NCBI GenBank assembly: GCA_964016885.1
Contig: OZ024743.1
Location: 16,864,001-16,928,000, forward strand
Reading direction: 5' to 3'
DNA length: 64,000 nucleotides
Origin: Eledone cirrhosa
Lineage: Eukaryota
The notes beneath the pieces were generated by a model. That model saw only the letters and a list, made by a program, of their open reading frames with translations. It was not told the DNA's origin and made no database searches. This document shows positions 38,671 to 42,199 of the stretch, in pieces. The number at the start of each line of letters is the position of its first letter. Within the stretch, counting starts at the first letter, position 1. Made by a program: the position numbers and the translations under genes.

Positions 38671-39081
38671 TTATATATATATATATATATATATATATAT
38701 ATATATATATATATATATATATATATATATTTATATATATATATATATATATATATATATATATATATATATATATATATATATATATATATATATATAT
38801 ATATATATAAATGGAAAAGAATGGAACGAAATTTCATTTCTCACACTTAGTACGGCTGATACCTAAATATAAGTATGTATACGTACATACATATATGTGT
38901 ACAGATGCACAGTAGTATGTATATATACATATATATATACATGCACACATGTATATATGTACGTATGGGTTTACCGAACATTTATTATACTGCTCGGTGT
39001 GTTTGTAAACAAATAGCCCGAATTATGCCGTACAGTGCTCGGCAACCATCGTCGCCCTTTTTGTTCAACACTGACACAGGA

Positions 39082-39124
39082 ACGATGTACTAGTTTCAAG
39101 CTTATAAGCTATCGTCAGCATCGT
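39082..39124 (-). ncRNA. Type I hammerhead ribozyme (best-preserved copy)
   Basis: Sense: ACGATG CTGACGA T-AGCTT-AT-AAGCT-T GAAA C-TA-G TA CATCGT. 6-bp helix I, intact CUGANGA/GAAA core, GUA triplet, palindromic minimal stem III. Confidence 0.85.
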
Positions 39125-39893
39125 ATACCTTTCTGTCAGATGATTGAAAGAATATACTTTCCTTATGCATATTAACGGCTGAGCAGCCGAATTTGCATAT
39201 CGAGTGAGGTAGTCGGCCGGGTAAAGTCAAAACGATAAATGGAAAGTAATGAAACAAAATTTCCATTCTCACTCTTAGCACGGCTGATATATAAATATAG
39301 GTATGTATACATATATATATATGTACGTATATATACGTACATATATATATGTTAGCATGTATGCATATATATATATACATACTACTGTGCGTCTGTACAC
39401 ATATATGTATGTACGTATACATACCTATATTTACGTAATAGCCGTACTAAGGGTGAGAAATGAAATTTCGTTTCATTCTTTTCCATTTACCGCTTTCGGT
39501 ATACCCGGCCGATATATATACATACATGCACACACACACACATATATATATATATATATATATATATATATATATATATATATATATATATATGTGTGTG
39601 TGTGTGTGTGCATGTATGTATATATATATATATATATATATATATATATATATATATATATACATACTACTGTGCGTCTGTACATATATATGCATGTACG
39701 TATACATACCTATATTTAGGTATCAGCCGTACTAAGAGTGAGATATGTAATTTCGTTTCCTTGTTTTCCATTTATCGGTTTTAGTATACCTGGCCTACTA
39801 ACTCACTCGATATGCAAATTAGGCTGCACAGCCGTTAATAAGCATGTGGAAAGTATATACTGTCAGATGTTAAATCATCTGAAAGAAAGCTAT

Positions 39894-39936
39894 ACGATGC
39901 TGACGATATCTAATAGGCTTGAAACTAGTACATCGT
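39894..39936 (+). ncRNA. Type I hammerhead ribozyme (stem II weakened)
   Basis: ACGATG CTGACGA TATCTAATAGGCTT GAAAC TA GTA CATCGT. Confidence 0.75.
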
Positions 39937-40608
39937 TTCTGAGTCAGTGTTGAACAAAAAGAGCGTCGATGTTTGCCGAGCACTGTACGGCATAATTCGG
40001 GCTGTTTGTTTACATGCAAACCGAACAATATAATAAACGTTTGGTAAACCCATACGTACATATATATATATATGTGCATGTAAGTATATATATACATGCT
40101 ACTCTGCGCCTGTACACATATATGAATGTACGTATACCTACTTATATATATATATATATATAAATATAAATATATATATATATATATATATATATATATT
40201 TATATATATTAATATGTATATATATATATATATATATATATATATATATATATATATATATATATATATATATATATATATATATATATATATATATATA
40301 TATATATATATATATATATACATATATATATATATATAAATGGAAAAGAATGAAACGAAATTTCATTTCTCACACTTAGTACGGCTGATACCTAAATATA
40401 AGTATGTATACGTACATACCTATATGTGTACAGACGCACGGTAGTATGTATATATATATATATATACATGCACACATGTATATATGTACGTATTGGTTTA
40501 CCGAACATTTATTATACTGATCGGTTTGTTTGTAAACAAACAGCCCGAATTATGCCATACAGTGCTCGGCAACCATCGTCGCCCTTTTTGTTCAACACTG
40601 ACACAGGG

Positions 40609-40650
40609 ACGATGTACTGGTTTCAAGCTTATTACTATCGTCAGCATCGT
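40609..40650 (-). ncRNA. Type I hammerhead ribozyme
   Basis: Sense: ACGATG CTGACGA TAGTAATAAGCTT GAAAC CA GTA CATCGT. Confidence 0.75.
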
Positions 40651-41601
40651 ATACCTTTCTCTCAGATGATTGAACATCTGAAAGTATATAATTTCCTTAT
40701 GCTATTAACGGCTGAGCCGCCTAATTTTCATATCTAGTGAGGTAGGCGGCCGGGTAAAGCGAAAACGATAAATGGAAAGGAATGAAACAAAATTTCATTT
40801 CTCACTCTTAGTACGGCTGGTATTTAAATATAGGTATGTATACATATATATATGTACGTATATTTACGTACATATATATATATGTGTGCATGTATGTATA
40901 TATATATACATACTACTGTGCGTCTGTACACATATATGTATATACGTATACACATCTATATTTAAGTAACATCCGTACTAATTGTGAGCAATAAAATTTC
41001 GTTTCATTCTTTTCCATTTATCGCTTTCGGTATACCCGGCCGTTATATATACATACATGCACACATATATATATGTAGATATATATACGTTCATATATAT
41101 ATGTGTGCATGTATGTATAATATATACATACTACTGTGCGTCTGTACACATATATCTATGTACGTATACATACCTATATTTAGGTACCAGCCGTACTAAG
41201 AGTGAGAAATGAAATTTCGTTTCATTATTTTCTATTTATCGCTTTCGTTATACCCGGCCGATATATATATACATACATGCACACATATATATATATGTAC
41301 GTATATATACGTACATATATATATATGTGTGTGTGTGTGTGTGTGTGCTGTATGTATATATATATATATACATACTACTGTGCGTCTGTACCCATATATG
41401 CATGTACGTATACATACCTATATTTAGGTATCCGCCGTACTAAGAGTGAGAAATGTAATTTCGTTTCATTCTTTTCCATTTATTGTTTTCGGTATACCCG
41501 GCCGACTAACTCACTCGATATGCAAATTAGGCTGCTCATCCGTTAATATGCATAATGAAAGCATATACTTTCAGATGTCCAATCATCTGAGAGAAAGGTA
41601 T

Positions 41602-41644
41602 ACGATGCTGACGATAGACAATAAGCTTGAAACTAGTACATCGT
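41602..41644 (+). ncRNA. Type I hammerhead ribozyme
   Basis: ACGATG CTGACGA TAGACAATAAGCTT GAAAC TA GTA CATCGT. Confidence 0.78.
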
Positions 41645-42199
41645 TCCTGTGTCAGTGTTGAACAAAAAGGGCGACAATGGTTGCCGAGCACTGTACGCCT
41701 TAATTCAGGCTGTTTGTTTACATGCAAACCGAACATTATAATAAACGTTTGGTAAACCCATACGTACACATATATATATGTGCATGTAAGTATATATATA
41801 CACGCTACTCTGCGCCTGTACACATATATGAATGTACGTATACCTATATATATATATATATATATATATATATATATATATATATGCGTGTGTGTGCGTG
41901 TGTATATTTACATATATATATACATATATATGCATATATATATATATATATATATATATATATATATATATATATATATATATATATATATATATATATA
42001 TGTACACACATATATATATATATTTACATATGAATATCCATATATATATATATATATATATATATATATATATGTATATATATATATATATATATATATA
42101 TATATATATATATATATATATATATATATATATATATATATATATATATATATATATAGAGAGAGAGAGAGAGAGAGAGAGAGAGAGAGAGAGAGAGAG

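Follow-up and report, generated by a model that had tools for sequence, protein, structure and literature searches.

What is the TA-rich repeat in this stretch of the Eledone cirrhosa genome (the window, meaning all 64,000 nucleotides analysed), and how could units of its kind have been copied and inserted? The initial annotation had described a ~430-bp non-coding monomer with a type I hammerhead ribozyme and proposed a new retrozyme family. The five CTGACGA cores it listed were confirmed in the 64-kb window, starting at 39118(-), 39900(+), 40644(-), 41608(+) and 49121(+), and each is followed, as claimed, by GAAAC..GTA and then CATCGT. The surrounding helices are less well preserved than had been described. 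The ACGATG reported for the 49115(+) copy reads ACTTTG, which breaks helix I; the palindromic ACTAGT of stem III fails in the 40609(-) copy, where it is the non-palindromic ACCAGT and where helix II has also lost 1 nt; and mismatches interrupt helix II of the 39894(+) and 41602(+) copies. Helix damage was found in four of the five, the sole intact hammerhead being that at 39082-39124(-).

The hammerhead of the family comprises CUGACGA, a U.U-closed helix II (family form AGCU-AAUA-AGCU), GAAA and the GUA triplet, together with a helix III of one pair plus a palindromic loop. Its 6-bp helix I continues, as had been suggested from the window copies, past an internal loop, and leads into a long rod. 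The U.U at the base of helix II, which the annotation had entered as a caveat, was correctly seen, but it carries little weight as an objection because the axolotl hammerhead HHR_Amex2 is reported to have U.U and to cleave (PMC7229834). The Rfam hammerhead models lent no support to the assignment in the two copies that were tested alone, HH9 scoring best at one of them with 12.5 bits against a gathering score of 52 and nothing matching the second, and a scan of the whole window returned, among the matches listed, only microRNA matches to TA/TG runs, all of them below threshold. When a covariance model was trained on copies of the family, it recovered exactly the five cores in the window, all five of which were in its training set.

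By segment mapping, two near-identical composites (38807-40150 and 40336-41856) were delimited between (TA)n runs, each of them made of one minus and one plus arm that meet head to head (Table 1). Three of four tested alleles were confined to the plus arms of these two composites among 132 merged stretches of the genome (top BLAST hits, or the first pattern matches listed on contig C1, and thus not a random sample), and the composites are therefore one two-armed insertion duplicated as DNA. The copies in the window do not form an array, and same-strand hammerheads one monomer apart are absent from it, as had been noted. The locus is an old and mostly damaged product, unlikely to be a source of RNA; this age and damage, and with them the footprint of Penelope-type insertion described below, had been missed.

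Table 1. Repeat copies, hammerhead motifs and adjoining features, in window coordinates.
Feature	Positions	Strand
(TA)n target microsatellite, left flank	38672..38809	
Left arm of insertion copy 1; outward-facing 3' end, stops at the long (tailed) end	38807..39326	-
Tail of ~57 nt between short and long end; stem-loop predicted in homologous stretch	38807..38864	-
Type I hammerhead motif, only intact copy in the window; predicted cut between 39088 and 39087	39082..39124	-
Right arm of copy 1; short fold-back repeat at 5' side, stops at the short end	39379..40150	+
Hammerhead motif, helix II mismatched	39894..39936	+
(TA)n separating the duplicated copies	40143..40338	
Left arm of the second copy, with the long end; this copy arose by local DNA duplication of copy 1	40336..40849	-
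Hammerhead motif, helix II deletion and non-palindromic helix III	40609..40650	-
Right arm of copy 2 (short end); fold-back repeats of 218-244 bp at 5' side, full monomer at 41372-41804	40910..41856	+
Hammerhead motif, helix II mismatched; predicted cut between 41638 and 41639	41602..41644	+
(TA)n target microsatellite, right flank	41845..42158	
Young Neptune/Nematis-type Penelope-like element with RT and GIY-YIG; comparator, candidate partner at most	42772..48851	
Separate copy with one arm, from another subfamily; long end, broken helix I, sequence deleted after the hammerhead	49085..49406	+

Other elements surround these copies. Positions 2829-30858 are a nest of non-LTR retrotransposons, with a 993-aa RT ORF on the minus strand (22167-25148) and, at 27245-29560, an endonuclease-RT ORF preceded by a 714-aa ORF. 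Further Penelope-like fragments in mirror arrangement lie at 32074-37806 and 49500-51600 (the one ORF tested had no Pfam match), and an assembly gap of 200 N occupies 53800-53999.

Beyond the window, the monomer proved to be real and abundant. A 33-base downstream marker has 13,514 exact matches in the 3.0 Gb genome, and an exact hammerhead pattern that covers one helix I form only has 4,625; the reversed control gave 0 in each case. From cleavage site to cleavage site the unit measures 419-556 nt, mostly 420-440 nt, and head-to-tail units, which occur genome-wide, are present as 50 tandem pairs in 24 of the 132 stretches. Within this sample the repeat unit contains no protein-coding region, and the copies, which differ by ~2% from their own majority sequence, fall into at least eight subfamilies. 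A type I hammerhead-like motif of another family was seen in L118 (minus strand, near 1312 of the upstream part).

The core is intact in 26 of 33 copies of an unbiased set, picked by a marker outside the ribozyme. Excess conservation of the core, the lack of which the annotation had named as refuting its reading, is not seen in these individual copies, for which 10 changes were observed and 10.0 expected, the rare changes striking the core at the flank rate; an earlier depletion among top BLAST hits (2/520) was not repeated in the unbiased sample, and conservation at the copy level was rejected. Such an excess appears only between subfamilies. With one copy taken per stretch, lineage-level changes fell on 0 of 29 positions of the core, helix II and helix III and on 15 of 113 positions elsewhere (p 0.04), a difference that loses significance once array mates are counted (p 0.25). 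Differences between subfamilies affect 1 of 31 core, helix II and helix III positions against 88 of 325, the latter number being inflated by end gaps, and the p of 0.015 rests on counts adjusted by hand for those gaps. One helix I pair varies as A-U, G-U, U-G and C-G and is the only pair with two-sided covariation. On evidence that is modest, the pattern fits copies that would be dead on arrival but derived from templates that must keep the ribozyme.

Folded as circles and compared with 40 shuffles each, three natural monomers gave z values of -8.1, -3.5 and -6.8, and the predicted circles are 65-71% paired, partly owing to a TA/TG hairpin. The lowest-energy monomer folds are predicted to pair the core into an inactive shape. 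In a dimer, forcing helices I and II would cost 2.8 kcal/mol and the ACUAGU duplex would yield -4.8, so that the calculated energies are compatible with dimeric cleavage. The stable circle folds, the tandem monomers found across the genome and the absence, in the sample, of any Penelope ORF running into the repeat together support the proposed reading as a retrozyme-type family.

The ends of the copies carry a record of how they were inserted. Clear of locus edges we counted 146 insertions, 79 two-armed, 66 single-arm and one complex, and all 79 of the two-armed kind have their 3' ends outward and consist of 5'-truncated mirror arms joined head to head. The ends map to two sites ~57 nt apart, termed short and long. 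Both ends could be typed in 46 two-armed insertions (the other 33 had an end truncated or untyped), and 45 of these pair one short with one long end (p 1.3e-12); in a set enlarged by 23 loci the same holds for 56 of 57 typed pairs, that is, the tail is present at one end only. A (TA)n run of at least 10 nt adjoins 143 of the 174 typed ends. The arm with the short end was the longer in 34 insertions and that with the long end in 16, three being equal (n=53, by a crude measure); there is no consistent nesting of one arm within the other, evidence in favour of two primers on the RNA over fold-back copying of a single arm.

This arrangement recalls Penelope-like elements, for which a tail often at one end only has been described (PMC8557442), as have a protein that cuts and extends both strands and is predicted to dimerize, and two internal start sites of reverse transcription on the RNA that bound the tail (PMC11167929). 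The Neptune-type Penelope family next to the repeat has the same short and long pairing in 8 of 8 cases, with a 41-nt tail, and the mirror arms of its copy in the window, one with the short left end and the other with the tailed right end, are 100% identical over 2,341 nt. That element also carries the CX4CxxC linker given for Neptune and Nematis (PMC8557442).

Several side observations concern these Neptune-type elements. The full-length neighbouring element, in L134 (G000:C3:83292500-83302499), also in L133, L135 and L136 and at window 42772-48851, has a 436-aa ORF1 with no Pfam match, which overlaps the RT ORF in the -1 frame, with an in-phase slippery heptamer; strong downstream structure was not predicted, and the overlap is a candidate programmed frameshift. 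By eye, three Neptune-type families (window ~48655-48690; L164, L171) have hammerhead-like motifs with U3-A8 in place of C3-G8, a substitution reported before (PMC4209133), and with an ACCGGU helix III. The family in the window also has GCAA for GAAA, and its hammerhead may be inactive, yet the family is the youngest.

What RNA served as template is indicated by variants that the units of one insertion have in common. Locus L305 contains six tandem hammerhead units, and its five full units are identical bar one base and one TA-length change. Against the sister lineage L301 the unit has eight A>G changes and one other, and six of the eight A>G sites are preceded by U. The editing enzyme ADAR prefers a 5' U. 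An edited 30-mer of L305 occurs six times in the genome, always in the L305 array. At L088, A>G accounts for 11 of 15 variants and T>C for none, and a doubly changed 25-mer has three genomic occurrences, two in tandem and one in the mirror arm of the same insertion. The two arms of L301 itself, which have short and long ends, comprise 4+5 units, and the seven full units compared are identical.

Over all insertions, variants common to every unit of an insertion comprise 19 A>G and 1 T>C, against 45 and 26 among single-unit variants (p 0.005); of the shared A>G, 8 were supplied by two loci. No more than 7 of 51 two-arm insertions and 10 of 62 tandem ones have near-private shared variants, most older insertions lacking such a marker; a stricter filter for private variants leaves only five shared ones, and many pairs have variants of ~1% frequency present in both of their arms. 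At a strand-symmetric site A>G outnumbers T>C by no more than 187 to 129, arrays inflating both, and G>T is likewise in excess of C>A (62 vs 31). The A>G bias of the shared variants identifies the template as hammerhead-sense RNA, and its presence on the sense strand in both arms argues against the antisense self-priming proposed for Penelope-like elements (PMC3846280).

These variants indicate that one RNA molecule supplied both arms and the repeated units. Probably it was a single edited monomer, copied repeatedly and from two primers, and in circular form, a circle being the simplest reading of the shared edits. For the family as a whole we consider it fairly probable that protein-free units of ~425 bases with a type I hammerhead are cut from longer transcripts, circularised and pasted into (TA)n by a Penelope-like RT-endonuclease. 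Somewhat better than even, in our estimate, is the chance of the more specific scheme in which a dimer of the Penelope RT-endonuclease primes a single ADAR-edited retrozyme circle at two fixed sites, one site for each target strand, and copies it for several rounds.

The strongest of the alternatives, though itself unlikely, is that the Penelope machinery copied an uncleaved read-through multimer in which the hammerhead was a passenger, uniform arrays arising later by DNA amplification or gene conversion. Insertion of the Poseidon element in vitro is reported to have used uncleaved RNA and not to need the hammerhead (PMC11167929), the core here is not conserved at the copy level, and the window itself is a DNA duplication. 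Higher-order arrays exist as well. Arrays of 6, 11, 9-10 and 50 units were seen, the units of L214 (G000:C1:19314626-19316772) alternate as ABAB, which implies either a dimeric template or duplication of a dimer, and the 50-unit hammerhead satellite at G000:C1:51772395-51793780 (L302-L304) has a period-4 higher-order structure that marks it, by its sequence organization, as a retrozyme turning into satellite DNA. Newt satellite 2 likewise carries hammerheads, with a helix III that is weak and palindromic. The array of 50 units resembles that state (the satellite is named in PMC7229834), but unlike newt satellite 2 the long arrays here are the minority state of a dispersed, retroposing family. 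Alternating and period-4 arrays mean that amplification at the DNA level occurs and could have homogenised L305, whose uniformity may possibly have arisen in this way. Against a multimeric template, independent editing of its units should not give each of them equal edits, whereas edits unique in the genome recur across tandem units and mirror arms; and the core is spared by the changes that separate subfamilies.

Next in plausibility, and likewise improbable, comes a cleaved linear monomer copied by a Penelope-driven reverse transcriptase that jumps from the 5' end to the 3' end, with no covalent circle. Such jumping would explain the shared edits and the repeated units as well as a circle does. 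It is disfavoured by the junctions at the cleavage site, which are without a seam in every aligned unit of L305 and L301, by the 5' truncation points, which (as rough BLAST boundaries) are scattered over the monomer with no pile-up at the cut, and by the report that related retrozymes accumulate mainly as circles (PMC7229834).

Quite unlikely is the possibility, anticipated by the initial annotation, that the repeat represents nothing more than a pseudo-LTR, belonging to an autonomous Penelope-like element whose copies are heavily truncated. The ends, tail and target are Penelope-like, Penelope families in this genome carry hammerheads with U.U closure and palindromic helix III, and retrozymes of Xenopus are described as related to pLTRs (10.64898/2026.07.22.740005). 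With nine query proteins, though, no Penelope ORF was found upstream on the sense strand and leading into the repeat (0 of 132 stretches), the Penelope matches near it being opposite-strand, downstream or separate insertions, and 0 of 30 GIY-YIG loci end in the repeat. By comparison, about two thirds of 30 loci at the 3' end of the neighbouring Penelope family show its ORF, and the ORF-free arrays of the repeat reach 50 units. From the absence of an upstream Penelope ORF in the sample it follows that the repeat behaves as a non-autonomous retrozyme; a rare or extinct ORF-bearing parent is possible.

Candidates for a partner were sought in several ways. Comparison of the repeat with nine Penelope 3' regions from about eight families was not significant in 17 of 18 cases and gave one low-complexity hit in the other, and a 3' motif common to the repeat and the neighbouring Neptune-type family, suggestive by eye, failed a shuffle test. 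The 5' flanks of 80 single-arm insertions, searched for hybrids with one Penelope arm, revealed no recurrent partner among the matches listed. L075/L097 turned out to be a one-off antisense chimera, in which mirror-image Penelope 3' fragments surround antisense retrozyme pieces (L097:5807-8870). Widely spaced hammerheads, which could have flanked an ORF, were found to belong to separate insertions or to arrays. Separately, a Penelope family seen in L253-L267 (the family of L182) has a canonical hammerhead with a U.U-closed helix II and an AGUACU helix III and ends in (TA)n or (CT)n; it is a candidate partner, without sequence homology to the repeat.

We give next to no credence to an ordinary satellite or fold-back DNA repeat in which a hammerhead-like motif arose by chance. 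That explanation could appeal to the TA-rich composition, the want of Rfam support and one satellite-like array, but it is already largely refuted by the dispersed copies, two fixed ends, 5' truncation, short and long rule and sense-strand clusters of A>G.

The life cycle that we favour, with an edited circle as template, would begin with transcription of tandem copies and cleavage after GUA, probably by dimeric hammerheads, given a helix III that consists of a single pair and a palindromic loop. By analogy with known retrozymes, the monomer would then be ligated into a structured circle and sometimes A-to-I edited. Both strands of (TA)n would next be nicked, and on a single RNA one nick would prime from the short site and the second nick from the long one, ~57 nt distant; here the end pattern is what the insertions display and the enzyme is what we infer. 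Synthesis would pass the hammerhead junction and might repeat one monomer several times, repetition that is seen at three loci and for which the route is presumed. The last step is observed: in the insertions the truncated arms stand joined head to head, and thereafter they decay neutrally or undergo amplification as DNA, as the window illustrates.

Much of this matches the metazoan non-LTR retrozymes as described (PMC7229834; PMC7761336), which are likewise non-coding units of a few hundred nucleotides with a type I hammerhead and low GC, and which occur as monomers to multimers in thousands of copies with a predicted self-paired circle (PMC7229834). Helix III is like that of axolotl HHR_Amex1, and the U.U base of helix II like that of HHR_Amex2 (PMC7229834). 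The present unit is slightly longer than the 170-400 nt quoted for metazoan retrozymes, and unlike them the family, known here from its DNA, consists mostly of dispersed two-armed (TA)n insertions with two fixed ends. Endonuclease-positive Penelope-like elements (PMC8557442, PMC11167929, PMC3846280, PMC4209133) share the partial tandems, inverted 5'-truncated copy, one-ended tail, microsatellite target and hammerhead upstream of the 3' end, but the repeat differs from them in having no ORF and a tail of ~57 nt rather than 30-40. The near-strict pairing of short with long ends is not quantified in the available text of this Penelope literature. Judged by sequence, the family has every feature of the metazoan non-LTR retrozymes, its insertion appears Penelope-like, and it does not appear to be an autonomous Penelope element.

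Dependence of retrozymes on Penelope elements has been proposed (PMC7229834), the metazoan retrozymes being said to show no motif that identifies their mobiliser (PMC7761336). Li, Clavereau and Pollet (2026; 10.64898/2026.07.22.740005) interpret animal retrozymes as non-autonomous Penelope derivatives on the basis of co-occurrence and pLTR homology, mainly in vertebrates, and leave the mechanism open. In comparison with that work, no pLTR homology was detected here, but an insertion footprint and editing marks were. Neither PMC7229834 nor 10.64898/2026.07.22.740005 shows, in the text available, an insertion footprint or repeated edited units, and a full-text literature search, with most subscription journals and Repbase outside it, found no paper that treats the family or describes traces of editing in arrays of retrozymes.

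The class of element is thus already known, and what the family adds is mechanistic fossils. Two steps of the life cycle appear only as proposals in the literature examined, as far as its available text goes: the insertion of animal retrozymes by Penelope machinery, and the passage from circle to multimer cDNA. For both, the family offers countable genomic evidence at named loci; since two start sites are mapped and a very young Penelope family is available, the existing in vitro system (PMC11167929, as described there) could test both steps directly. The short and long rule constrains how Penelope inversions form, and the repeated edited units likely record repeated passage of a reverse transcriptase around a small circular RNA. 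If rolling-circle, twin-primed copying is the true reading, it would unite in one mechanism the Penelope tail, the joining of arms head to head in inversion and the multimers of retrozymes, and an edited circular RNA would have been written into the germ line.
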